Shown one piece after another: positions 1,739 through 41,243 of a stretch of DNA of 43,656 bases (the stretch's first letter is position 1; each line of letters starts with the position of its first letter). Under the pieces are notes generated by a model. That model was given only the letters and a program-made list of their open reading frames with translations. It was not told the origin of the DNA and did not search any database. Source of the stretch: a virus; the IMG/VR virus record IMGVR_UViG_3300010352_001565, positions 179,055 through 222,710 of that record. One strand, 5' to 3'. The translations under genes were made by a program, and so were the position numbers.

Positions 1739-3157
1739 ATGCCTCGGACTAAGCTAACATACGGAATCGAGTTGGAGTGCACTAAGCTCATGCCCAACGC
1801 GGCTGAGATCATTGCACGCCGCGAGTTTGACAACCATTACGACAACTCCATCAAAGGAAACGATGGCGAGGATCTCCCGCGCGGAGAAGGTGGCGGATCT
1901 GAACTCGTCACCAAGCCTCTGATCATTGAAGCTTACTTGCACGATCGCAAAGCCGTGCTGAACGACCGGAACGATACCAAAGCGGTTGTCCGCGACCTGT
2001 GCAGCTGCGCGCAGTCCGTAAACAAATCGTGTGGTCTGCATATCCACATCGGCTGTCCGCTGGAGAGCACTGGGCGTAGCACTCAGATGAGGAGCCGCTG
2101 GAATCCAGAGCAGACGCGGACGTTTCTCGCCATCGCGCTTGCTCTCGAGGATAAGATGTTTGACCTCTGCCCTCCGAGCAGAAGGAACAACAGCTACTGC
2201 AAAACGATTCGCGAGTTATACACCAACGCAGAGCTTGAGGCCTTTCACCCCACGGGAGAAGTTGTCGCCCGTAAGTGGGACAACGCCAAGCGCTACTGCT
2301 GGTTTAACATCGTCGAGACTCTCCGGATTGACAACGTCCCGTCGTCTCCAGGAACCGTCGAGATTCGCATGCTTGGAGCAGTGCGCAGGTTTGAATACAT
2401 TTGGTCCTGGATTAACCTCTGGCTCAAGATCGGAACTTATGTGGCATTTGCTACTCCAGCTTCTGCGATAATGAGCTGCGTACATTCTGGGGCGCTAGAC
2501 GAGGACATTGAGGCAGTGAGGACCGCGAAGAATTCGAAAGTTTCTCCGGCCGCTGAGCGGTCTCCGAGCATTTCGCGAATTGACGACGAGCATCCGAGAA
2601 ACGGCAGGTCTTTGCCTGTGTTCAACCCTACTCACCAAGCGTGGGAAATTCCAGCGACTCCAAGCTGGTCAGAGTTTCCTGGTGGTGCTGAAGACGGCGG
2701 ATACTCGGGAACGCAGATCAGATACTCTGACAGTGCGGAGACCGACAGCCAGCGGCAACAACGAATGGTTCAGGATTTAGTGAACGCATCTCAGCGGTCT
2801 CGCGAGGTGGCCCAAGCGGCTCCAGCTCCTGCCGCAACTCCAGCTCCTGCCGCAACTCCTGCTCCCGCTCCAGAACCCGCACCTTTACCCCCTCCTCCGC
2901 AACGACGACGAGGGCTTAGGCCGATTCAAGAGCGCATTCGCGATGCTGTTCGAGCTGAGCGCGCAAATGCACAGCAGGAGAACGCGCAGCAAGAGGAGAA
3001 CGTTCAATCAACTCCTCCATCCTACCGCGTGGTTGGAACATCCACCGGTCGATTAACTTCTTCCGGATCGAACGTGACTAGCAGACCGCGAGAGGAGAGC
3101 GAGGGCGGAGACCACTTTAGCGTCCTTGACTACGATGGCTTTGGCGAGCACTATTAA
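1739..3157 (+). CDS. amidoligase paralog B with a Pro/Ala-rich low-complexity C-terminal extension
   Basis: Carries YGIELECT, CGLHIHIGC and VEIRMLGAV. In the amidoligase / gamma-glutamyl-cysteine-ligase-2 fold these correspond to the metal-binding Glu pair, the His pair and the ATP-binding Arg. About 150 C-terminal residues are AAPAPAATPAPAATPAPAPEPAPLPPPP-like, encoded by an 18-bp tandem repeat at about 2821-2870. Confidence 0.6.
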   Translation: MPRTKLTYGIELECTKLMPNAAEIIARREFDNHYDNSIKGNDGEDLPRGEGGGSELVTKPLIIEAYLHDRKAVLNDRNDTKAVVRDLCSCAQSVNKSCGLHIHIGCPLESTGRSTQMRSRWNPEQTRTFLAIALALEDKMFDLCPPSRRNNSYCKTIRELYTNAELEAFHPTGEVVARKWDNAKRYCWFNIVETLRIDNVPSSPGTVEIRMLGAVRRFEYIWSWINLWLKIGTYVAFATPASAIMSCVHSGALDEDIEAVRTAKNSKVSPAAERSPSISRIDDEHPRNGRSLPVFNPTHQAWEIPATPSWSEFPGGAEDGGYSGTQIRYSDSAETDSQRQQRMVQDLVNASQRSREVAQAAPAPAATPAPAATPAPAPEPAPLPPPPQRRRGLRPIQERIRDAVRAERANAQQENAQQEENVQSTPPSYRVVGTSTGRLTSSGSNVTSRPREESEGGDHFSVLDYDGFGEHY

Positions 3158-3240: not shown

Positions 3241-4278
3241 ATGTGCGCAATAATTGGTTGGGCCGGAAAGATCCCAAAAGGCCTGCTGACCCGCATGCTG
3301 ATCGGGGCTGAAACCCGAGGCAAGGATTCGACTGGACTCGCTTTTCGAGCAGTTGAAGATGGGAAGACATGCAATCTATGCTATCGCCACATCGTCCCTG
3401 CCCGCACCTTCGTTGACATCCACAAGGACTTCGTGGGAGACGCCCGGCGTTCATTCCGCGGCATTGCTCACACTCGCAATGCATCTCCTGGAATGCCGAT
3501 CGATAACTCGAACGCGCACCCATACGTCTATCCGTGGGAAAACATGGGCAAGTATTACTTTGCGCACAACGGGCGAATCCAAAACTGGAAAGTTATCAAA
3601 GCGGAGCAGATTGAAATCTACTCCAGAGAGCTGAACGAGCTGATCTCAGAATTTGTGGCGCTTACGGCATCTGGCGAGAAGCCAATGACCGCTGAAGAGG
3701 TTAAGGTCGTCCTGACTGCCCTTGCGAAAGCTGAGCGCGAGCCTGTCTCAAAAGAGCAGGATGCTCTGAAAGCACTCGCTGAGGACAAGTTCAACGCCGC
3801 TCAGGGAATCGCCGCCCGTCTTCGCTACGTCGAAAATGCGACAACAGACTCGATGATTCTCGGACCGTGCATCGAGAACCGCGACTTCAGCGAAGTTGAC
3901 GGTTGCATGGCGCTGGTCTGGATGAAAGCAGACAACGTCTATACCTTCAGGAGCGCTAAAGAAGCTGTTGCGGCGACCGTCGTTTGGAAATACAAAAAGC
4001 CAGCGTCCGGAGAACCGGCAGACGACCAGCTTGTCACCATTGTTGCCAGTACGAAAGAGATTATCGAGAAGTCATTCGACAAAATCGCGGACGCTGTTGA
4101 CTCTGACATCGCGTTCATCAACTACGACGAGGGGCGCATTTACCGGCTTATGCCCAACACCATGGTTGATGAAGGGCGCGTTCCTGTCCACCAGGCAATT
4201 GAGGACGAGTTTTCATCATCGGTCGTTGAAACCGAAACCGCTGAGCAGATCAAAATTGAAGACGCGGGAACCAAATGA
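3241..4278 (+). CDS. class-II (Ntn-hydrolase) glutamine amidotransferase-like protein
   Basis: The N-terminus is MCAIIGW, so Cys becomes residue 1 after Met removal, the nucleophile position in GATase type 2. It also has HTRNASPG and YFAHNGRIQNW (an HNG-I-N-like motif). An AAGGA RBS lies 8 nt upstream. Confidence 0.6.
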   Translation: MCAIIGWAGKIPKGLLTRMLIGAETRGKDSTGLAFRAVEDGKTCNLCYRHIVPARTFVDIHKDFVGDARRSFRGIAHTRNASPGMPIDNSNAHPYVYPWENMGKYYFAHNGRIQNWKVIKAEQIEIYSRELNELISEFVALTASGEKPMTAEEVKVVLTALAKAEREPVSKEQDALKALAEDKFNAAQGIAARLRYVENATTDSMILGPCIENRDFSEVDGCMALVWMKADNVYTFRSAKEAVAATVVWKYKKPASGEPADDQLVTIVASTKEIIEKSFDKIADAVDSDIAFINYDEGRIYRLMPNTMVDEGRVPVHQAIEDEFSSSVVETETAEQIKIEDAGTK

Positions 4279-4664: not shown

Positions 4665-5529
4665 AGAGCTTGCGTACGGCGCGTTTCAAAGTGGGATCTA
4701 CAAAAAGAACATCCACTACCTGTTCGACAACGACGACTCTATGCAGTTCATGATGGTCAAGCAGATGGCTGGGTCGCCAGGCATGACAACATGGATCACA
4801 CAGCGCGCCTATTCGAAAGCAGGAATCCAGATTCAAGTGGAGAAGGACGTCTCGCTGGATCTCGAGGCAACTGACTTTGTCGCTGAGGCGGCGACGGTTG
4901 AGAACGTCCAGTGGCCATCCCCTGTTATCGAACTCTACTTTCAGGACCCAAAGCTTCCGACCATTCTGCTGATGAAAACGTCGCCAGCGCAGGTTGCCGA
5001 GTGGTTTCCGTATCTTGAAGTCGCGCTAGAAGCTGAGTGGTACATCACCGCTTTGATTCAGGAAGGCTCGAATGAGCTGGGGAAAGTGCTCAGCGTCCAG
5101 CTAAAGCCAGATATGTGGGACGAGTTTCTGACAACCGGAGAAACCGAGAAAATGGCAACCGGTTTGATGAGCTACAACTTGTCTGAGGTGGACAACGCAT
5201 CGATGTCCTACATGCTGAACCTGGCGCTCAAGGTCCTTGCTCTCGCGTCCATTCCAGGGTACAAACCCACGCCGATGTCTCGAAAGCAGATGCACGAGGG
5301 AAAACCAGGCGTCAAAGGACGGCCGAACATGCCGTCATTCCTGCTCTCGTACGGCCAAGCTCCGCTTGCTCCTCCTGTACGGCACGAAACCTCCGGGCGC
5401 CTGTTCAAAGGACGTCGCGGGCACATCCGGTGGTACATGGACCCCCGCTATACGAACCGGAGATTCACCTGGGACTTCATTAGGCCTGTCAGGGATCCAA
5501 AGACAGGAAAGTATCCAGACAGGAGTTAA
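4654..5529 (+). CDS. hypothetical protein (291 aa); the ORF-track start at 4519 is probably too far upstream
   Basis: The in-frame ATG at 4654 (MNIKELAYG...) avoids a 145-nt overlap with the previous gene. I recognise no domain. Confidence 0.45.
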   Translation: MNIKELAYGAFQSGIYKKNIHYLFDNDDSMQFMMVKQMAGSPGMTTWITQRAYSKAGIQIQVEKDVSLDLEATDFVAEAATVENVQWPSPVIELYFQDPKLPTILLMKTSPAQVAEWFPYLEVALEAEWYITALIQEGSNELGKVLSVQLKPDMWDEFLTTGETEKMATGLMSYNLSEVDNASMSYMLNLALKVLALASIPGYKPTPMSRKQMHEGKPGVKGRPNMPSFLLSYGQAPLAPPVRHETSGRLFKGRRGHIRWYMDPRYTNRRFTWDFIRPVRDPKTGKYPDRS

Positions 5530-5535
5530 AAGCTC

Positions 5536-5553
5536 CCCAGGAACAATCCTGGG
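5536..5553. terminator. hairpin between convergent genes (CCCAGGA-acaa-TCCTGGG), likely a terminator for the minus-strand operon
   Basis: A 7-bp GC-rich stem sits immediately after the stop of the minus-strand gene and is followed on that strand by AGCTTTTAA. Confidence 0.4.
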
Positions 5554-5769
5554 TCACTTCACCATCATCTTGGCGATCTCTTCGCACCCGCGAACTAGTG
5601 CCACAAGCGCTAAGGATGCAATCACAAGCATCAGTAGCGACACCGCAGTCGACTTCCTCCTTTTTTCCATGGCTAGCTTTGGGTTCTCAGCGCACTCAGG
5701 ACACAGCTTACCGTTGGGTAATGGAGACGTCCTGTCACAGATCTCGCACGGGCCGTGAATTTCAACCAT
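5554..5769 (-). CDS. small zinc-ribbon protein with a C-terminal transmembrane helix (71 aa; the track ORF 5554-6033 is trimmed to the internal ATG)
   Basis: The ATG at 5769 lies 1 nt after the helicase stop. CEIC...CPEC is followed by the hydrophobic stretch LLMLVIASLALVALV. The longer 159-aa version overlaps the helicase by 260 nt. Confidence 0.4.
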   Translation of the reverse strand: MVEIHGPCEICDRTSPLPNGKLCPECAENPKLAMEKRRKSTAVSLLMLVIASLALVALVRGCEEIAKMMVK

Positions 5770-5770
5770 A

Positions 5771-7189
5771 TTATTTGAGCTCCTCAGGGACATCTTCACC
5801 CGGATCTTTCTTTTCAGTCCGGCTGTTTTTGCCTTTTCTGCGAGGCTTATTATCCTCTTCAGCGGCATCTGGGTCGTATTCGATCTCGCTGTCGATCGTG
5901 ATCTTGAAAACGGTAGGATCGACCTTGCCTTTAAAGTGGCCGCAAGCTGCTCCGTGACGGTTGATGAAGATGAAGAAACGAAGCACGTTTTGGACATACT
6001 CCTCTTCAGTGGAGCAGAGACCGATCGCCGCATCCACGATACCTGCTTTTTCGAACGCGCCCTGGAAGCTCGTCATATTTGGAACGGCTGCGTCAACCGT
6101 GTCGCGATTGCAGCGGTCGGGCATGATCACGCAGCAGCCAAGCTCCTTACCCATCGCGCGGGCTTCGGTATAAATGTCAGACTGCTGACGATGGTCCTTA
6201 ATGTCTTTGGTGGCGCTTGGCTTGATCGTTTCAGCGTAGTCGATGAATATCGCTTTTGGGTGCAGATTGAACTGTTTGATGCACGTCTTGGCGTGCGCCT
6301 TGATGTTGGCGATTGTCGCCTGTTTTGCAGCGAAGTCCTTGAAGAGAAGGTTTCCGGCTACGAGCGACCCGAACTTCTCGTGGCAAGCTTGCTTGAACTT
6401 TTCAGGATTCTCATACATGTAGTCCATCGTCTTGCCAGACAAATTAGACAGGGCGCGGCAGATGGCCAACTCCTTTGAAATTTCGCAGGTGTAGTAGAGG
6501 ACATCCTCGTGGATTAACGGGCTGATCATGTTCAGCGCCAGATTCAAGCACACCGCCGTTTTGTAGCGTTTAGGAGGAGCGAGTGGAACGATGAGCCACC
6601 CGGGATGCCAGCCATTTTTCCAAATGCCGTCTAGGAGCGGATAACCCGTGCGGATACCAAATCCTTTAGCAGTAATGTTGTCGACCGCATAGTCGGCGTG
6701 GGCATGCAGCACCCATCCAAGATCGTCAAGATTCTGACCGATAGAAAGAGCCTCTTCAAATATCTTAACGATGTTAGTCTCTTTGATCTTGCCCTCTTTT
6801 ATCGAGTCGATCGATTTGCGCACGGCGTTAACCACGGCTCGTTCGCGGCAGAAGTCCACGGTCTTCTGCACCACATACTCCTTATCTCCAGTGTCCATGT
6901 CCCTGAGCCGCGTGATGTAATCTGCGACGCGGTTGCTGGAATCTTCCTCACCAGCTTCAATGTGGCGAAGATACTCGGAGGACATTTGGTTGAGAGTCTC
7001 CCATCCCGGAAACCTCCCGTACTGCTCGTTGTATTCGATGGCTACCTTTGCCACGGCAGTTGCTTGAACACCGGAGAAAAACTTCGGCTCGACAATCTGT
7101 CCATAGCACTGAAAATCCTGCGGGTGCTTGATAAGGCAACTGAGCAGGAGGTCTTGAAATTCTGCTGTAAATCCAAACTGTTCCATCAC
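5771..7189 (-). CDS. DnaB-like replicative helicase (RecA-fold)
   Basis: It has a DnaB-like N-terminal domain, the loop GYPLLDGIWKNGWHPGWLIVPLAPPKRYKT (LD...G...G.L.h.A with a degenerate Walker A KT) and a Walker-B-like AIFIDYAE. Confidence 0.6.
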   Translation of the reverse strand: MMEQFGFTAEFQDLLLSCLIKHPQDFQCYGQIVEPKFFSGVQATAVAKVAIEYNEQYGRFPGWETLNQMSSEYLRHIEAGEEDSSNRVADYITRLRDMDTGDKEYVVQKTVDFCRERAVVNAVRKSIDSIKEGKIKETNIVKIFEEALSIGQNLDDLGWVLHAHADYAVDNITAKGFGIRTGYPLLDGIWKNGWHPGWLIVPLAPPKRYKTAVCLNLALNMISPLIHEDVLYYTCEISKELAICRALSNLSGKTMDYMYENPEKFKQACHEKFGSLVAGNLLFKDFAAKQATIANIKAHAKTCIKQFNLHPKAIFIDYAETIKPSATKDIKDHRQQSDIYTEARAMGKELGCCVIMPDRCNRDTVDAAVPNMTSFQGAFEKAGIVDAAIGLCSTEEEYVQNVLRFFIFINRHGAACGHFKGKVDPTVFKITIDSEIEYDPDAAEEDNKPRRKGKNSRTEKKDPGEDVPEELK

Positions 7190-11646: not shown

Positions 11647-12708
11647 ATGCCTAACAACGGACCCATACCTTCATACGCCAGTGAGAGACTCATTGGACTC
11701 GAGCTCGAGTACGACGCAAAAACCACCAAGCTCAGCTTGCCAACGACGACACCTTCTGGCTGGTCGCGGCAGTCTGACGGCAGCCTGCAGAATGGCGTTG
11801 AGATGGTGCTCAATCCTCCTCTGACGCTGACAGATGCAACTCCAGTGGTCAAAGAGTTCGCTGACGCTTTCAACCGAGCCCGGACAAACACCTTCAGCAG
11901 CGGCGGCTTCCACGTTCATGTTCAGGTTGCGGATTACACCGAGCATGACGCCGGAAATCTCGCTCGCCTCTACCACCATTTTCAGACGCAGATTAACCGG
12001 TTGCTTGGAAAATCTCGCCACAACAACCACTACTGCCCTCCGTTTACGCACTCCGTGACAGATGCCGATCTTTCGTCGAGATTTAATCTCGGCTCGCTTG
12101 CCAGCACGAGAGCCAGCGCCAAGTCTGCCCGCAAATACCAAGTGGTGAACTTCGCAATGATGCGGTGCACTCGCCACAGCGACCGCACGGTGGAATTTCG
12201 CCAAGGAAGCACCACAAAGCGGTTTGAGTGCATCATTGGCTGGGCGGCATTCTGCGTTGCCATGGTTGAAATCGCCAAGAACGACGCCATGACCAGCGCT
12301 TACATCGGTCAGCAAGCGTCGTGGGAAAACTTCGTGCAGATGCTTCGCGACCACGAATCCATGGTTGGTGCCAGCCACATTGCTGACTGGGTGGTTTGGA
12401 GACGCGAATATCTCGAAGAGACACCGAGCGACGAGCTCATCTCAAAAGCAGTTGCCGCTATGGGACGCCGTCCTCGCGGAATCTTTCACATCTCGCGCGC
12501 TCTCGACATCAACTTGCCGCTGAGCGAGCGGACTCTAAACGCCGCCGTTTCTCGCGGTCTGATTGCTAAGATCGGATCGAAATACCAAGCAAAGTTTGTC
12601 TCATTCGCGGGGTCAGATCTTGAGCAGCTTCAACAAGCCGCGGAAGCCAGGGAGGCAGCTATGCCCGCTGACCGCTCAGGCGAGGTTCTACCTGGAGAGG
12701 AACAATAA
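11647..12708 (+). CDS. amidoligase paralog C
   Basis: Carries IGLELEYD, GGFHVHVQV and VEFRQGSTT, the same three-motif architecture as ORFs 359-1354 and 1739-3157. Confidence 0.6.
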   Translation: MPNNGPIPSYASERLIGLELEYDAKTTKLSLPTTTPSGWSRQSDGSLQNGVEMVLNPPLTLTDATPVVKEFADAFNRARTNTFSSGGFHVHVQVADYTEHDAGNLARLYHHFQTQINRLLGKSRHNNHYCPPFTHSVTDADLSSRFNLGSLASTRASAKSARKYQVVNFAMMRCTRHSDRTVEFRQGSTTKRFECIIGWAAFCVAMVEIAKNDAMTSAYIGQQASWENFVQMLRDHESMVGASHIADWVVWRREYLEETPSDELISKAVAAMGRRPRGIFHISRALDINLPLSERTLNAAVSRGLIAKIGSKYQAKFVSFAGSDLEQLQQAAEAREAAMPADRSGEVLPGEEQ

Positions 12709-26827: not shown

Positions 26828-27011
26828 GCGCGCACAGGTTGACGAGAATCGGCTGCGATGGCGTAGGCAGACGCCAGTCGATTCTCAGACGCAGCGCTCA
26901 GTTGCGGGTTGTATCGCCGATCCGCAACACTAATTTGGTTAAATTATGGCGTCGGCAGCGGCGAGAAACTCCGCTACCTGAAATGCCAAGAATGCGACCG
27001 ATTTTTGAGAT

Positions 27012-27086
27012 GCTCCCGTAGCATAGTGGTTATGCGCCAGACTCTAAATCTGTTTTACGCCGGTTCAATCCCGGCCGGGAGCACCA
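27012..27086 (+). tRNA. tRNA with anticodon CUA (amber suppressor; identity unknown)
   Basis: Manual cloverleaf: 7-bp acceptor stem (GCTCCCG/CGGGAGC), D-arm gcat-agtggtt-atgc, anticodon stem ccaga/tctgt with loop C-T-CTA-A-A (U33 and A37 are canonical), a 5-nt variable loop, T-arm gccgg-TTCAATC-ccggc, discriminator A and an encoded CCA. Confidence 0.7.
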
Positions 27087-27103
27087 ACTTTTGTAGGTAA
27101 AGT

Positions 27104-27466
27104 ATGAAAAAACAGAAACCAGGAAGTAAATCTCGTAAGCTCATTGAGGCAGCGGAAAAGTCGCAGACGCCGCAGACGCTGTTGCCCGGCGACTACGTCC
27201 GCCTGATCGGCGGCGAAGAGATCCCTGATGAGTTCGGAGTGATCGAGTGGGATGAGGGAATATCACCGCTTGGTGAGCATTTTTACGTGGTGCAGGTTGA
27301 TCCAAAATGCATCCACGACGAGGACGATGATGGCGCGCGTGAGGTCACGCAAGATCAGATCCAGTTCATCCGCCGTGGAAAGGGAACATTCACCGGTAAG
27401 CAATCTGCCGGCGTCAAGAGGGTGAGAGACTACCTTCAGGCGCACGGACAGGACCAGAAAAACTAG
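27104..27466 (+). CDS. hypothetical protein (120 aa) ending in TAG, in frame with the downstream PTH2 gene
   Basis: Its ATG is 18 nt after the tRNA. Its TAG stop is at 27464-27466. Confidence 0.5.
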   Translation: MKKQKPGSKSRKLIEAAEKSQTPQTLLPGDYVRLIGGEEIPDEFGVIEWDEGISPLGEHFYVVQVDPKCIHDEDDDGAREVTQDQIQFIRRGKGTFTGKQSAGVKRVRDYLQAHGQDQKN

Positions 27467-27520
27467 TGTACAACTCAACAAAGAAAGCATATTCTTATGA
27501 ACATGAATACCCACACGTAG

Positions 27521-27907
27521 GTGTCTGAACCGGCCGCTGATCAAACCATGCGGCTGTACGCCATCGCTCATGCCAACCTCGGCATGGGAACTGGCAAACT
27601 CGCTTCTCAATGCGGTCACGCATTCACTGAAGCGCTTCTTCACTCACAAGAGTTTCAACCTGCTCGTTTTAAGGAATACCGCTCAGACGGGATGGGCACT
27701 AAAGTGGCCCTCTCTGCGAATTCCACCGACGAGATCCACAGCATCAAGTCCAAGTGCGACGAAGCTGGCATTCCGGCGACGATCATCACGGATTCTGGGT
27801 GTGCTAATTTCTTCAACGGAGCCCCGACGATAACCGCCATCGGCGTGGGACCTGCGAAGAGACACGAAGTCAAAAAGATCCTCGGGCGGTTAAAACTGAT
27901 CAACTGA
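27521..27907 (+). CDS. peptidyl-tRNA hydrolase, PTH2 family
   Basis: LGMGTGKLASQCGHA and GTKVAL...GIPATIITDSGCANFFNGAPTITAIGVGP...ILGRLKL align motif by motif with archaeal and eukaryotic PTH2 (LGMGKGKVAAQCSHAA ... [21 protein letters not shown]...VTGHLKL). The track start is a GTG. The first ATG is at about 27548 and has no obvious SD. Confidence 0.8.
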   Translation: MSEPAADQTMRLYAIAHANLGMGTGKLASQCGHAFTEALLHSQEFQPARFKEYRSDGMGTKVALSANSTDEIHSIKSKCDEAGIPATIITDSGCANFFNGAPTITAIGVGPAKRHEVKKILGRLKLIN

Positions 27908-27945: not shown

Positions 27946-28251
27946 ATGACAACGACAACGAATATCGCTAGCACACCGCTGACCTTCACCACCCGCGAAC
28001 AATACGTCGCTTGGCGCGCCCAGTGGCGCAAGGAATACGCCGAACTCAGCTCCAGAATCCGAAAGGAAAACCTCGCGCTCAAGGACGCCTTCCGCGGAAA
28101 AGGAACGGCTTCCACGTGGACAATCCGGCATAACCTGGTGGTTCTCCGCAGCACCGCCAGAGCCATGCTTGAGATGCGCGCCGCATCGAAGGTCCGCGCT
28201 CAAGAGCAGCATAAAGCGGCTCATCCGACAGAGCTGCTTGTCAGTGAATAA
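27946..28251 (+). CDS. hypothetical protein (101 aa)
   Basis: AGGAAACTAATAAT lies upstream of the ATG. Confidence 0.45.
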   Translation: MTTTTNIASTPLTFTTREQYVAWRAQWRKEYAELSSRIRKENLALKDAFRGKGTASTWTIRHNLVVLRSTARAMLEMRAASKVRAQEQHKAAHPTELLVSE

Positions 28252-33629: not shown

Positions 33630-34454
33630 ATGAGTGCTGAGCCACTTCAAACGTCCGCCAATAGCCCAGATTCGCTTCCGCTGGTCGGTTACACAATCGA
33701 CCAGCTTAAAGCTTATATCCTTCGATCGCTTGGATCTCCGATGTGGAGCGTGGAGGTCACCCAACAGCAAGTCCTTGATTGCATAAACGACGCGCTTGGG
33801 AAGTTTTCTCAGTGGTGCCCTCAGCCAAAGTTTGGGTCGGTCAAGATGGTTGAGGGCCAATCAGCCTACCTCAAAGGAGTCGACGTTGGCCAGGGAATCG
33901 CCCAGATTGACTTTGTCGAGCCGATGCCGCTCCAGTACGAGCTCTTCTACGGCAACCTTTTCAACAACGGTCCGCTTGTTGGACGCGGTCTCGAGGAGAT
34001 GGACATGTGGCTCAGGTGGAGAAAGACCTGGAAGCGGGTCATGTCAGTTCAGCCAGACTGGATCTACGACGAGGTCAACAGGGTCCTTCTGATACACAAT
34101 CCGATTGACCGGTACCATGCAGGGATCATTTGTTACGGCAACTATGAGCGGACAGAGCGCCTGCCAATGACAGGAGCCCAGTGGGTCAAGGAGTTTGCCC
34201 TAGAGAAAGCCCGGTACCAGTATGGCGAGAATATGTCCAAGTTCAGCGGCGCCATTCCTGGTCCGCTTAAAGACCTTCAGATGGACACCTCCAAGCGCGA
34301 CAAAGCCGAAGCCCGCATGGAGAAGCTGCTCGAGAAGCTCCAGGGAATGCAGACCAGCACCCCCATCATGATCGATACCATCTTAGCTTTACTGATTCCA
34401 GCAGGCTTGGCAGTATCTAGTCTGTGGAATACTATGTTTACGAGTTGGTGTTAA
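33630..34454 (+). CDS. hypothetical protein (274 aa), possibly virion-associated
   Basis: I recognise no motif. The CCCTA-gtatt-TAGGG hairpin lies just upstream. Confidence 0.45.
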   Translation: MSAEPLQTSANSPDSLPLVGYTIDQLKAYILRSLGSPMWSVEVTQQQVLDCINDALGKFSQWCPQPKFGSVKMVEGQSAYLKGVDVGQGIAQIDFVEPMPLQYELFYGNLFNNGPLVGRGLEEMDMWLRWRKTWKRVMSVQPDWIYDEVNRVLLIHNPIDRYHAGIICYGNYERTERLPMTGAQWVKEFALEKARYQYGENMSKFSGAIPGPLKDLQMDTSKRDKAEARMEKLLEKLQGMQTSTPIMIDTILALLIPAGLAVSSLWNTMFTSWC

Positions 34455-35287
34455 TGCCTGACAACCGCGTCCTTTACGTCGGAAAAGGACACGGTTCGCG
34501 GATGAGTTTTCACCAAAAAGTTATTGACCATCCTCAAAATAAGCTGAATCAGCGTCCGATGTACCAAGGGCTGCGCGCTGAGCTCACACCTGGAAAGTCG
34601 TTTATCGCGCGAAAGGTGTTTGAGTCCGCCGACGAGATCGTGTGCCTTCTCGAAGAGCAACGGCGAATCCACGAATACGGATTCGATAATCTGTTAAACG
34701 TGGCTTCTCACGCCTTCACTGGACGCCGAATGAAACCAGCTGTTGGAAGGCTTATCGCTTCTAAGCTCAAAGCCTATGTTCAACGCTGTCGCGATCAGTA
34801 CGGATCTGGGCACCCTCCAGAAGTTGCTGCCAAAATCGCGGCGTCAAACCGCGGAAAGCAGCTAAGCTCAGAGCACATTCAGAAAATTCGTGATCTCCAT
34901 GCGTCTGGAAAGATGGACCACGTTCATGTTGTGTTTACTGACGCCGGACGCCGAGCGCAGTCTGAACGCGGCTTCTCTGAAGAGCACCGCAAGGCGCTGT
35001 CCATATCCTGCCGCGGTAGGAAGTACCCAAACAGAAGGCGTCCTGGAATCATTCAAAAACAGGATAAAATGAGGTACAAAGGAGTGTCGCTGTTTAAAGG
35101 AAAGTGGGTGGCTAGGATCACAATCGAAGGCAAGGTAAAGATGGTTGGAGTGAGGTCAGATGACCGCCAAGCAGCCGTGCTGTACGACAACGCGGCTGAG
35201 AAGCTGTTCGGAAAGAGACCGAACGCCACAGAGCGCTCAGAGCAGGTCCAATCTGCGTGGGCAACGGCGTCAAGTTTGAAATGGTAG
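34424..35287 (+). CDS. GIY-YIG homing endonuclease with NUMOD3 and AP2 DNA-binding domains
   Basis: The N-terminus YYVYELV...NRVLYVGKG is GIY-YIG-like. KIAASNRGKQLSSEHIQKI is NUMOD3-like. YKGVSLFKGKWVARITIEGKVKMVGVRSDDRQAAVLYDNAA is an AP2 domain. The start is a GTG that overlaps the upstream gene by 31 nt. Confidence 0.7.
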   Translation: MEYYVYELVLMPDNRVLYVGKGHGSRMSFHQKVIDHPQNKLNQRPMYQGLRAELTPGKSFIARKVFESADEIVCLLEEQRRIHEYGFDNLLNVASHAFTGRRMKPAVGRLIASKLKAYVQRCRDQYGSGHPPEVAAKIAASNRGKQLSSEHIQKIRDLHASGKMDHVHVVFTDAGRRAQSERGFSEEHRKALSISCRGRKYPNRRRPGIIQKQDKMRYKGVSLFKGKWVARITIEGKVKMVGVRSDDRQAAVLYDNAAEKLFGKRPNATERSEQVQSAWATASSLKW

Positions 35288-35302
35288 TTAGGTTAGCGCG
35301 GC

Positions 35303-35364: not shown

Positions 35365-35952
35365 ATGAGAATCGACGACTACATCTTGCAGTGCGGTGTT
35401 CGATCGCTGTGCGAATCTGAGTCTTCAGATACGCCTCCGACGCCGCAAGAAGTGGCTGAACTCTTGGCCTACCTTCGGAAGTTCAAGCTGAACCCTGTCA
35501 TTGTCGGTGGAGTCGCCGTGTTCCACCACTTGAAGTCGGCTAAGTCAAGCGATTTCCGTCCTACTGTGGACATCGACGTCCATGTCACCAGGCCTCTTCC
35601 TCCTCCGCCTTCCGGGTGGAGTGACAACAACCATGAAGGAATTGACAGCTGGAAAAGCCCGTCTGGCGGCAACGTCGATTTTATCATCGGCGGTCAGGTC
35701 CTGTCTGGGACGTATCGCACTCTAAAGAGTGTCAAGGTAGCTCCAGATTCACCCCAGGAGTATCCTGTGGCTGCGCTTGATGACTTGCTAAGGATGAAGC
35801 TTGGGACCTTCAGAGAGAAGGACCAGAGAGATCTTATCTCGCTTGCTCACGCCTATGAGTTTCCTGAGCTCAGCGGACTGACAAGGAATCAGAAAGAAGA
35901 CTACGACTTCTTCAAAGGTTACGCAGCGAGCATCAAGGCGCGGAAGGAGTAG
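35365..35952 (+). CDS. nucleotidyltransferase-fold protein (AbiEii / DUF1814 / MNT-like)
   Basis: VIVGGVAVFHHLKSAKSSDFRPTVDIDV matches the Pol-beta superfamily hG[GS]...D.D signature, with AbiEii-like spacing. It is the first gene after an early promoter. Confidence 0.4.
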   Translation: MRIDDYILQCGVRSLCESESSDTPPTPQEVAELLAYLRKFKLNPVIVGGVAVFHHLKSAKSSDFRPTVDIDVHVTRPLPPPPSGWSDNNHEGIDSWKSPSGGNVDFIIGGQVLSGTYRTLKSVKVAPDSPQEYPVAALDDLLRMKLGTFREKDQRDLISLAHAYEFPELSGLTRNQKEDYDFFKGYAASIKARKE

Positions 35953-36205
35953 TAGGAGGTTCGGCTTTGGCTTTCACCGGAGGTTGCTCGGCTTTCACCG
36001 CGGTAACCTCATTCACCAGCTCTTGGTAGTCTGCGATAATGGCTTGGGCTTCCTGAAGCATCGCCGCAGTCATGATCATCACATTGGCTCTAGCATTAAA
36101 TTGTGCGGCGCGGCGGCCAAGAGTTAGTTTATCCACATTCTTTAGAACATGTCGATTAAATTTTCGCTGTGCTACACGTCGTGCAGAGCGCACCTGATCA
36201 AGCAA
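35933..36205 (-). CDS. possible small minus-strand protein in the gap upstream of the GT2 gene
   Basis: The plus strand has a 195-bp ORF-free gap here. The minus ORF has a coiled-coil-like sequence. Its low-complexity end overlaps the stop of the NTase gene. Confidence 0.25.
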   Translation of the reverse strand: MLDQVRSARRVAQRKFNRHVLKNVDKLTLGRRAAQFNARANVMIMTAAMLQEAQAIIADYQELVNEVTAVKAEQPPVKAKAEPPTTPSAP

Positions 36206-39263: not shown

Positions 39264-39722
39264 ATGCCTGAGCGCGAACTACCACAGCTTCCTCCCATTG
39301 ACATGGGAGATGACTTTAAATTGGATCTGTCATACTATTTGACCCAAAGCTACGACGACATAGGGCAGGCTTCAAGCGAGCTCCCTGCGGTCATCGAGTG
39401 GGTCAACATGAAGCTCCAGGAGATGGTTGAATCTCGGCTGATCGCGAAACAGCGCATAAAGGAGCTTGAAGCTGAAGCCTACTTCGATCTTAAAGGAGGA
39501 AGGTTTGCTGAGAATTACTCAGACAAGATGACAGAGACCTCCTTGGCGATGGCTGTAGCGCTTGACGAAAAGGTCAAATCAGCTCACCGAAAGCATGCTG
39601 TTCTGGCTGGGTGGGTTGAAAGACTGTCAAATTTACAAGGTTCTCTCGTGGCGAAGCTTGACCTTACTCGGTCATCCGAAGCCACTCGCCGCCAACTGAT
39701 AAGCAAACACGATTCTGAATAG
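39264..39722 (+). CDS. hypothetical protein (152 aa) ending in TAG, in frame with the SSB gene
   Basis: The ATG at 39264 follows the GT9 stop. The track ORF 39198-39722 overlaps the GT9 gene. Confidence 0.45.
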   Translation: MPERELPQLPPIDMGDDFKLDLSYYLTQSYDDIGQASSELPAVIEWVNMKLQEMVESRLIAKQRIKELEAEAYFDLKGGRFAENYSDKMTETSLAMAVALDEKVKSAHRKHAVLAGWVERLSNLQGSLVAKLDLTRSSEATRRQLISKHDSE

Positions 39723-39731
39723 TACAAATTT

Positions 39732-41243
39732 ATGAGTAATCAAGAAAAAAGTCCAGCATATCTGTCTCTCCTCGAGGAAGAGACAAGTTACATGCAAGCT
39801 AACACCTCTAACAAGGTGAAGCGCATCAAGATCCCTCTCGGACACGCGTGGCTCATGCGGTTCCTTCCGGTTGAACTGGGCCCGCGCAAATCGTTTTTTG
39901 CTCGCGTCGCAAATCACTGGGTTAATCGCCGTCCCATTCCTTGCCGACGCCACACTCATCCCGACTTTGGCGGAGACCCTCACGCTCCCTGCGCCATGTG
40001 CGATGCTTCCGAAGAGCTTAATGGCCACGGATCTCAGCGCATCTCGTCGATTGGATACGGCGCGCGGTCCATCAGCCAGTGGGTTTTGTTCGCACTGGTC
40101 TTCGAAAAAGATGACGGCGAGCGCAGCGACGTTATTAAAGCTCCTGACATGTGGGACGCTCATGAGTTTCAGATCACGAAAAACTCGTTTGAGGATCTCC
40201 TGAGCATCTTCAGAAAGGGAACGCGCCGCTGCCCGCTGAGCATCCTTGACCTCGTTCAAGGTCAGGACATTTGGGTTACGCAGAAGAAAACTGGCATACG
40301 CTTCGCTCCTGAAATGCCGAGCGCGATAACCAACAACCAAGACAAGATGCAGTCGATCGTCGACAAAATCTGGTCCGGAATTAAGTTCCAAGAGCCAAAG
40401 TTCCTTAGCTCTCGCGAACTTGAAGACGCCGCTGACAAGCTGCGAGACTCAGCTGAAGACGCTGGTCGTGGCCGTGGAGACGACCGTGATCGTGGTCGCC
40501 GAGGTGAAGACGAAGTTGAAGACTACGGGCGCGGACGCCGAGACGACAGAGGTCGCGGGCGCGACGATGACCGCGGAAGTCGCGGGCGTGACGACGATCG
40601 AAGCAGGGGCGGATACGACTCTGAAGACGATGCTCCTCGCGGGCGTCGCGGCGATGACGCTCCTCGCAGCAGGCGCGGAGAAGATGACGATGCTCCTCGC
40701 GGGCGCCGTGGAGATGATGAAGATGCTCCTCGCGGACGACGCGAAGAAGAGCCAAGAGGCCGGCACGACGACGAAGATGACGCTCCTCGCGGGAGGCGCG
40801 AGCGAGACGCCGATTCCGGACGAGATGACCGAGGGCGCGAAGATGACGACCGTGGGTCAAGAGGACGCAGTGACGATCGAGGACGCGGCGAAGACGACAA
40901 CGAAGAACGCTCTGCTCCGTCTGCTTCTCGCCGAAGCATGACTCCTCCGTCGGTGTCTCAGACTCCGCGCCAGGCACCTCCGTCTGCTTCAAAAACGCTT
41001 CCTCCTCCACCTGCGCGCGGCGGGACTAACGGAGCGCAAGAGCAGTCGATTGATGATGACGAAGCCATTCCAGAGGAACGCAGAGATCCCGCTCCTCCAG
41101 AGTCTATGCCAGAGCCCGAGCCTGAAGCTCAAGCTCCTGCAGACGCTCCTCCGCCCGTGGCTGCAGCTGGCGCTACGCCGTCAGCTCCCCGCTTGTCGCA
41201 GCGCATCCGCTCTGGAATAAACAGCCTTGACACCAGGAAATAA
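39732..41243 (+). CDS. T4 gp32-like zinc-binding ssDNA-binding protein with a long RG/D-rich disordered C-terminal tail
   Basis: RFLP at residues 43-46. Zinc ligands C71, H74/H76, C87 and C90 (CRRHTHPDFGGDPHAPCAMC); C87 and C90 are exactly as in gp32. The tail (residues 245-392) contains six DDAPRGRRG(D/E)D repeats. Confidence 0.65.
   Translation: MSNQEKSPAYLSLLEEETSYMQANTSNKVKRIKIPLGHAWLMRFLPVELGPRKSFFARVANHWVNRRPIPCRRHTHPDFGGDPHAPCAMCDASEELNGHGSQRISSIGYGARSISQWVLFALVFEKDDGERSDVIKAPDMWDAHEFQITKNSFEDLLSIFRKGTRRCPLSILDLVQGQDIWVTQKKTGIRFAPEMPSAITNNQDKMQSIVDKIWSGIKFQEPKFLSSRELEDAADKLRDSAEDAGRGRGDDRDRGRRGEDEVEDYGRGRRDDRGRGRDDDRGSRGRDDDRSRGGYDSEDDAPRGRRGDDAPRSRRGEDDDAPRGRRGDDEDAPRGRREEEPRGRHDDEDDAPRGRRERDADSGRDDRGREDDDRGSRGRSDDRGRGEDDNEERSAPSASRRSMTPPSVSQTPRQAPPSASKTLPPPPARGGTNGAQEQSIDDDEAIPEERRDPAPPESMPEPEPEAQAPADAPPPVAAAGATPSAPRLSQRIRSGINSLDTRK
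40464..40908 (+). repeat. imperfect tandem ~33-bp repeats in coding sequence (gacgatgctcctcgcgggcgccgtggagatgat) encoding the SSB tail
   Basis: All six frames are open here, which explains the spurious overlapping ORFs 40405-41010(-), 40523-40939(-) and 40420-40941(+). Confidence 0.55.

Follow-up and report, generated by a model that had tools for sequence, protein, structure and literature searches.

A conserved in-frame stop codon in the leader of phage PTH2 genes accompanies a suppressor tRNA and may gate synthesis of the encoded peptidyl-tRNA hydrolase

In Q-beta A1 and retroviral gag-pol, near-cognate host tRNAs extend a conserved upstream protein by a C-terminal domain, and in prfB, which encodes release factor 2 (RF2), an early in-frame UGA that is passed by a +1 frameshift allows the gene to sense its own product. 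The bar minigenes of phage lambda are separate toxic mini open reading frames (mini-ORFs), whose peptidyl-tRNA drop-off product is the substrate of peptidyl-tRNA hydrolase, and in the supD/T7-RNAP-amber AND gate (RNAP, RNA polymerase) the target carries an early in-frame amber codon and is suppressor-dependent. Gating of expression by suppressor availability has also been proposed for alternatively coded phages (bioRxiv 10.1101/2021.08.26.457843). The present analysis concerns an amber-suppressor tRNA gene, i.e., one with anticodon CUA, and the PTH2 peptidyl-tRNA hydrolase gene that follows it in an uncultured phage which is remote from cultured phages. The stretch that was analyzed, hereafter the window, comprises 43.6 kb (43,656 nucleotides; positions 179,055 to 222,710 of IMG/VR record IMGVR_UViG_3300010352_001565) of a roughly 222-kb genome, i.e., about a fifth of it.

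An earlier sequence-only reading of this DNA had assigned the downstream ORF to PTH2 and had placed a tRNA with anticodon CUA adjacent to it on the upstream side, and both assignments hold. The window protein is predicted to be a PTH2 peptidyl-tRNA hydrolase, matching PF01981 with 84.1 bits (cut-off 23) over profile positions 2-115 of 115 and residues 11-127 of the protein, and phrog_1866 with E=5e-22, while the core residues GK..SQ.GHA ... D.G ... T.TA.G.GP are invariant in nine aligned members of the subfamily, including that of the window. The tRNA(CUA) folds as a canonical cloverleaf according to ARAGORN, whose label ‘Pyl’ reflects the anticodon only, and scores 64.2 bits against Rfam RF00005 (gathering score 29, E=3e-13). 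It is elongator-like, with G1:C72 paired and an anticodon stem without the three G:C pairs of initiators, and its nearest neighbours are phage tRNA-Thr, a class that is over-represented in the comparison set.

The feature that links the two genes is an in-frame stop codon in the leader of PTH2. With the PTH2 profile, 111 more loci were fetched, and removal of duplicates resulted in 96 non-redundant members of the subfamily, which are 40-74% identical. An in-frame leader TAG, i.e., one located at most 50 codons upstream of the domain and before any TAA or TGA, was observed in 93 of these 96 homologues, at a homologous position which is most commonly six codons before LRLYA, and a leader stop is present in each of the 30 clusters obtained at 70% identity. 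The leader is composed of its own ATG, 1-20 codons and one or two in-frame TAGs, after which the first beta-strand of the domain begins; 66 loci possess one leader stop and 25 possess two, and in 34 the stop is codon 3 (ATG ACG TAG). The leaders of the closest relatives are homologous to that of the window (L015 and L006 in Table 1, and L048 with MNMQH(TAG)V, where (TAG) denotes the stop), and the MNM start is common to the window, L015 and L048. An ATG between the stop and the domain occurs in only four of the 93 homologues, one of which is the window; in the remaining 89, beta-strand 1 lies downstream of the stop without an intervening ATG, and zero-frame coding after the stop is thus needed.

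The context of the leader stops is also conserved. The codon preceding the 119 leader stops is ACG in 65 cases and ACA in 23 (88/119), ACC or ACT being found almost never, and the codon that follows is GTT in 68 and GTA in 19 (87/119), neither of which is a start codon, with GTG at two sites; the commonest context is ACG-TAG-GTT. Furthermore, the codons after the stop (xCx GA[C/T] CCN) are free in their third positions, which represents a coding signature, and L006 and L008 encode the same VPDT between their two TAGs with codons that differ synonymously. As opposed to the 119 stops in PTH2 leaders, only two were found in the domain body, in L015 (at about position 400) and L026, and both align to variable positions (E/G/D). 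These two body TAGs again precede a Val codon (FT(TAG)VIL and DP(TAG)VAE), which hints that the +1 GTN context may matter for decoding. The 9-mer ACR-TAG-GTD occurs 96 times in 630 kb, with 74 of these occurrences in frame in PTH2 leaders, compared with 4-18 occurrences of control 9-mers. The sole ACR-TAG-GT site in the window (27515-27522) is located at the PTH2 leader.

Of the 93 loci, 71 have a tRNA(CUA) gene on the plus strand within the DNA that was fetched, generally 100-170 nt upstream, and most of the others are short contigs. The type of the leader stop was observed to covary with the anticodon of the suppressor, the pairs being TAG/CUA, TAA/UUA and TGA/UCA. For example, the leader of L023/L104, a locus on a phage contig of 203 kb, contains two in-frame TAA codons (FT(TAA)V...FT(TAA)IPDPV/LRLYAVV), and the locus has a tRNA(UUA) 203 nt upstream, which is 76% identical to the CUA family and is thus the same tRNA with its anticodon switched. 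In Agrobacterium phage Atu_ph07, PTH2 begins with a Shine-Dalgarno (SD) motif followed by ATG ATT GGC GAA CAC TTT TGA, which places the stop at codon 7, and the GenBank coding sequence starts from an internal Met. The only suppressor of this phage is a tRNA(UCA), as reported in the corresponding paper and its supplement (PMC6102473) and as confirmed here with ARAGORN, which places it at 430.7 kb; it bears no relation to the CUA family, indicating that the suppressor was replaced and the stop changed along with it. In a relative of Atu_ph07, Sinorhizobium phage Phosso, the leader reads ATG AAG TAT TAG GTT, with the TAG at codon 4 and the coding sequence again annotated from an internal Met. From this leader TAG a tRNA(CUA) was predicted for Phosso, and it was then located in the record annotation at 446,731-446,806; a search for the Phosso suppressor by nucleotide and flanking-protein synteny with Atu_ph07 returned no match. 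As negative controls, classical PTH2 genes (L038-L046 and those of Xoo-sp13, RsoM2USA, RAS14, Myrna, phiM12 and WXIN) have a plain ATG, no leader stop and no adjacent suppressor.

Table 1. Positions of the features discussed in the window, and leaders of the window and of selected homologues; (TAG) marks an in-frame leader stop.
Feature	Position	Strand	Sequence details or evidence
Amber-suppressor tRNA, anticodon CUA, 75 nt, CCA encoded	27012..27086	+	ARAGORN; Rfam RF00005
ORF120, orphan 120-aa ORF between tRNA and PTH2	27104..27466	+	ATG 27104, TAG 27464-27466, stop context AAC TAG TGT
Proposed complete PTH2 frame, 136 codons	27497..27907	+	ATG 27497 (alternative ATG 27503), MNMNTHT, TAG, VSEPAADQTMRLYAI..., TGA 27905-27907
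Conserved in-frame leader stop TAG of PTH2	27518..27520	+	Context ACG TAG GTG
PTH2 catalytic domain PF01981, from internal ATG 27548 (MRLYAI...)	27548..27907	+	Pfam, PHROG 1866, homologue tally
101-aa partner ‘dn101’	27946..28251	+	tblastn against loci, spacing, alignment
Window leader			MNMNTHT(TAG)VSEPAADQTMRLYAI
L015 leader			MNMTSADT(TAG)V...
L006 leader			MNITTMTPT(TAG)VPDT(TAG)VQDQTLRLYAL
L008 leader			...GG(TAG)VPDT(TAG)TSSPDLTLRLYAI
L001 leader			MKQ(TAG)DNTYRLYA

The reading favoured here, which we regard as probable, is that synthesis of PTH2 from the leader ATG requires decoding of the leader stop by the phage suppressor; PTH2 output would then track suppressor activity. Such a dependence of PTH2 output on the suppressor is to be expected because the leader stop is so widely kept (93/96) and because its type covaries with the anticodon. 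In the window, translation would most likely start at ATG 27497 and reach the UAG at codon 8, beyond which the ribosome would read on into the PTH2 domain, yielding a 136-aa enzyme, only if the tRNA(CUA) outcompetes release factor 1. PTH2 synthesis would then be roughly proportional to the amount of active suppressor tRNA, corresponding to a natural amber gate or feed-forward loop. We infer charging of the tRNA and in-vivo decoding of the leader stop solely from the stop/anticodon covariation. As to purpose, a conjecture that is held loosely is that peptidyl-tRNA recycling capacity would be matched to the load arising from suppression and readthrough; alternatively, it may be conjectured that the arrangement would time PTH2 and its partner to follow tRNA expression.

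A number of points weigh against this interpretation. Five loci with a TAG leader and 5 kb of upstream DNA (L016, L018, L020, L027 and L087) lack a nearby tRNA(CUA), and XacN1 carries tRNA(CUA) genes but an apparently classical PTH; the XacN1 paper states that the targets of these tRNAs could not be identified. In the window, suppressor-independent initiation of PTH2 is possible, since GTG 27521 adjoins the TAG and ATG 27548 precedes the domain, and other TAG-containing genes may exist in the unseen rest of the ~222-kb genome. TAG is also the normal terminator of nine window genes, so that suppression must be weak, context-dependent or tolerated. Finally, the metagenomic loci are phylogenetically related and not independent, for which reason the raw counts given above exaggerate their independence; a fairer measure is provided by the 30 clusters together with the three switches of stop and anticodon.

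The most viable alternative is that the leader represents an independent mini-ORF, i.e., an upstream ORF that ends at the TAG, and that PTH2 is produced from GTG 27521 (the start of a 128-codon ORF that ends at TGA 27905-27907) or from ATG 27548 by reinitiation or coupling, the proximity of the tRNA being incidental. In the window this is compatible with the position of the GTG next to the TAG and with the complete Pfam domain obtained from ATG 27548; gene callers picked these starts, and the ATG-ACG-TAG leaders look like two-codon minigenes. Across the homologues, however, the post-stop ATG is missing in 89 of 93, the codon after the stop is mostly a non-start codon (GTT or GTA at 87 of 119 sites, GTG at two), a start at the next Met would remove beta-strand 1, and reinitiation leaves both the tracking of stop and anticodon and the 25 two-stop loci unexplained, rendering this alternative unlikely. 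The starts picked by gene callers are in fact affected throughout the subfamily: database gene calls for every homologue begin at an internal Met and are 10-15% short at the N-terminus, with loss of beta-strand 1. All deposited or predicted subfamily proteins thus miss this strand (L127 3037-3369, i.e., Atu_ph07 AUZ95035.1; L128 3037-3369, i.e., Phosso XYS97424.1; and P0003-P0010). This systematic N-terminal annotation error is due to the leader stop, which is, in turn, invisible in current annotation because gene callers truncate PTH2 systematically.

The sequence-only reading had gone further, in proposing that ORF120 and PTH2 are meant to be joined, i.e., that readthrough of two TAGs generates a programmed fusion in which PTH2 forms a C-terminal extension of ORF120 whose dosage is set by tRNA activity. 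The underlying frame relation was reproduced when the coordinates were rechecked, as both ORF starts are congruent to 2 mod 3 and the gap contains TAGs only, without TAA or TGA; 17 sense codons, CTTQQRKHILMNMNTHT, separate the ORF120 TAG from the leader TAG (27518-27520). The fusion would measure 267 aa (120+1+17+1+128) rather than the ~266 aa given before. The region 27000-27600 is 100% identical in five independent contigs from different samples, with no population variation across the gap, and the arrangement is thus not an assembly artefact. This common frame, the suppressor tRNA immediately upstream and the fact that efficient suppression would necessarily form some of the joined product speak in favour of a fusion. 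Nevertheless, the in-frame relation through TAGs alone does not exceed what chance would give. Of about 41 genes in the window, nine are TAG-terminated, and a second, ordinary pair of genes shares its frame across a single TAG, the gene at 39264-39722 being separated by its TAG and three codons from ATG 39732 of a gene that extends to 41243. Three further pairs are in frame via one TAA or TGA (junctions 1354, 1732 and 16727), and, with about 40 junctions in the window, one or two in-frame single-stop cases are expected. The pair at 39264-39722 and 39732-41243 served as a chance control, and an active suppressor would give some fusion protein there too. The absence of an SD motif before PTH2, which had been advanced for the fusion, is real yet uninformative and was dropped as an argument, as most window genes are without one. 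Indeed, 17 of 28 clear window genes have no SD-like motif at all, which suggests a host that is weakly dependent on SD.

The homologues do not support a programmed fusion either. ORF120 returned only self-hits in a search of 5.8 billion proteins, had no Pfam or PHROG match, and gave no tblastn match in any of 105 related loci. The homologous leaders have their own conserved ATG (MN...), with a TAA or TGA upstream of it, an outcome that the sequence-only reading had itself set against its proposal, and the small ORFs between tRNA and PTH2 in L006 and L011 end in TGA or TAA. The stop context of ORF120, moreover, is not the conserved ACR-TAG-GTW. ORF120 is therefore predicted to be a lineage-specific insertion into the tRNA-PTH2 unit, and its TAG stop and the frame it shares with PTH2 are probably coincidental. 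Because a TAA or TGA precedes the leader ATG in the homologues, a 267-aa fusion would most likely be an accidental minor by-product of two successive suppression events, and a role as intended product is very unlikely. What is retained of the earlier proposal is the link between tRNA(CUA) and PTH2 via an in-frame TAG, on account of its conservation and the stop/anticodon covariation, and, on the same grounds, a dosage set by tRNA activity as applied to PTH2 output; as applied to an extension of ORF120, which is absent elsewhere, it is not retained.

It is extremely unlikely that the genome has undergone general reassignment, in which TAG would be a sense codon (code-15-like) in many genes and PTH2 one instance among them. 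A phage tRNA(CUA) is a hallmark of TAG-recoded phages (bioRxiv 10.1101/2021.08.26.457843; PMC13037316), and the visible part represents only a fifth of the genome. However, code 11 yields ~41 intact and closely spaced genes in the window, nine of them being TAG-terminated, and the related loci as well as the complete Atu_ph07 and Phosso genomes are annotated normally with the standard code, in agreement with the confinement of stops to the leader (119 versus 2 in the domain). Recoding tests, based on ORF lengths with each stop read through and on stops with long flanking open frames, returned no TAG-specific signal in the window, the TAG at 39720 belonging to the ordinary gene pair described above, and no window gene besides PTH2 was found to need TAG readthrough. 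Two window genes end in tandem stops, TAG TAG (35950-35955) for the gene at 35365-35952 and TAG TTA GGT TAG (35285-35296) for that at 34424-35287; both stops of each tandem are of the same type and would thus offer no protection against an amber suppressor.

The notion that the leader TAG is a recent nonsense mutation or a neutral stop in a decaying gene carries next to no probability since, even if a single TAG in a short intergenic stretch of one genome is not improbable, the stop is kept in 30 clusters at 70% identity with a fixed context and position and with covarying tRNAs. Three further candidate mechanisms were rejected, namely initiation at the UAG by an initiator-like tRNA(CUA), given the paired 1:72 position, the lack of three G:C pairs, the conserved upstream ATGs and the 25 two-stop loci; quadruplet (UAGG) decoding, given the same frame in one-stop and two-stop loci; and a prfB-type +1 frameshift, given that leader ATG, stop(s) and domain are all in the zero frame in both kinds of loci.

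Directly 3' of PTH2, the gene dn101 was found in about 60 loci, the TAA variant and Phosso among them, and it often overlaps or abuts the PTH2 stop. Its product is helical, of ~100 aa, and displays the conserved pattern FTxKxEYLAWRxxWKxxYxxLSxxIR ... SKxEAQRQYLAxK; no Pfam, PDB or annotated PHROG match was obtained for it, and a word-indexed protein search returned two hits only. It often appears translationally coupled to the stop-gated PTH2. Based on the comparison of loci, the conserved unit is predicted to consist of the suppressor tRNA, the stop-gated PTH2 and the 101-aa partner, the window locus being one copy of what would be a widespread module of jumbo phages. A broader proposal, which we put forward tentatively and hold somewhat less probable than its negation, is that these three components constitute a self-contained switch that would be the main selected function of ‘orphan’ suppressor tRNAs in standard-code jumbo phages, and that an embedded tRNA in some lineages would bring together, on one transcript, the maturation of the tRNA, the competition of suppression with release factor and the recycling of peptidyl-tRNA.

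Such an embedded arrangement is suggested by ten loci in which the stretch from the tRNA(CUA) to the leader TAG lacks an ATG (L085 4871-5000, L088 4799-5000, L017, L021, L081, L082, L109, L117, L121 and L122). In all ten, the PTH2 frame is open through the tRNA gene, for which the chance is about 0.6 per tRNA frame, and an in-frame ATG with its own ‘...T(TAG)V’ stop lies just upstream of the tRNA, as in L085 (MNTNS(TAG)VINDKC(tRNA)FT(TAG)DTTLRLY). With the frame open through the tRNA and the ATG upstream of it, the PTH2 leader would contain, in frame, the gene of the very suppressor that would act on it, and PTH2 may in these loci be translated from the unprocessed tRNA precursor. In the window, an ATG GCG TAG at 26858-26866 shares its frame with an open stretch that passes through the tRNA gene, and also with ORF120 and PTH2, but this frame is closed by TAA 27098. 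Its context differs from the conserved one; it is probably due to chance, or possibly a relic of an embedded tRNA.

A mini-ORF is found ~55 nt upstream of the tRNA(CUA) in the L001-like lineage (L001 5203-5226, L115 ~3876, L096 ~212, L112 ~552, L121 ~584, L122 ~552 and L019 ~4457), where gatatagttat is followed, after 8 nt, by ATG AAx AAC AAC xxT ACA TAG GTT TC. It has the same ACA-TAG-GTT context as PTH2 leader stops and might act as a regulatory leader of the tRNA operon. In L001, the stretch that separates the tRNA(CUA) from PTH2 (5353-5977) contains several tRNA-like 3' halves (GGTTCRAnTCC...CCA) that are not called by ARAGORN and could represent intron-containing, split or degenerate tRNAs. 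In ‘ATG ACG TAG’ leaders, a TATAAT-like box lies ~7 nt upstream of the ATG, without an SD motif, e.g., in the soil-type loci L050, L055, L062, L064, L067, L068 and L075, which suggests leaderless mRNAs beginning at the AUG. A promoter and terminator scan around the module returned background level only.

Within 1.5 kb of the stop-gated PTH2, the commonest tRNAs after the suppressor are tRNA-Thr(CGU) and tRNA-Val(GAC/AAC), tRNA-His(GUG) being frequent as well (tally of L049-L079, L030, L032, L001, L115, L120-L122, L081, L088 and L101, and of Phosso at 428713 and 431356). The tRNA-Thr(CGU) reads ACG, the dominant codon at position -1, and the tRNA-Val(GAC/AAC) reads GUU, the dominant codon at +1, although these counts are raw across related lineages. 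Elsewhere, the window carries three amidoligase-like genes and one glutamine-amidotransferase-like gene (359-1354, 1739-3157, 11647-12708 and 3241-4278), as well as genes for a family-A DNA polymerase, an NAD-dependent ligase, a RecA-like ATPase, a helicase and two glycosyltransferases. A nucleotide search of the region against deposited phages returned no match.

No prior description of the module was found in the full text of open-access papers and bioRxiv, which was the literature covered. If the favoured reading is correct, the module would provide a concrete, conserved target for suppressor tRNAs in otherwise standard-code phages. It would likewise be a natural counterpart of synthetic amber gates, and its evolved context ACR-UAG-GUW may help to tune suppression. 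The association would also tie nonsense suppression to peptidyl-tRNA recycling, and suggests that side-effects of phage tRNAs on translation are handled by the phages themselves, or that the pair serves them as a timer or sensor. Direct testing is possible in culture with Atu_ph07, which grows on A. tumefaciens C58, and with Phosso, which grows on S. meliloti.

Compared with the systems outlined at the outset, the module resembles prfB in that an early in-frame stop in a translation-factor gene would sense termination versus an alternative event; unlike prfB, it operates in the zero frame through a tRNA of its own, and its enzyme has no role in stop-codon recognition. With Q-beta A1 and gag-pol it shares the lengthening of a protein by readthrough of an in-frame stop, although the part that precedes the stop here comprises 2 to about 20 residues, ORF120 not being conserved. 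The ATG-ACG-TAG leaders are of the drop-off-prone short ORF type to which the lambda bar minigenes belong, a resemblance that is drawn from sequence alone, but the mini-ORF here is in frame and continuous with the hydrolase gene. Synthetic amber gates, i.e., the feed-forward ‘leak dampener’ (PMC7969014) and sup-tRNA circuits (PMC13276491), similarly combine one or more early amber codons with a required, co-supplied suppressor; these gates are engineered, whereas the module described here is natural, occurs in about 100 phage lineages and is tied to a translation-quality-control enzyme. In alternatively coded phages, as presumably here, a phage suppressor tRNA decodes in-frame stops (bioRxiv 10.1101/2021.08.26.457843; PMC9523058; PMC13037316). 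There, however, many genes, mostly late and lytic, are concerned, the stops are scattered and coding density collapses under code 11, whereas the present module resides in phages that use the standard code and TAG terminators, and its stops occupy a defined site, the 5' leader of a single gene family, where their context is conserved.

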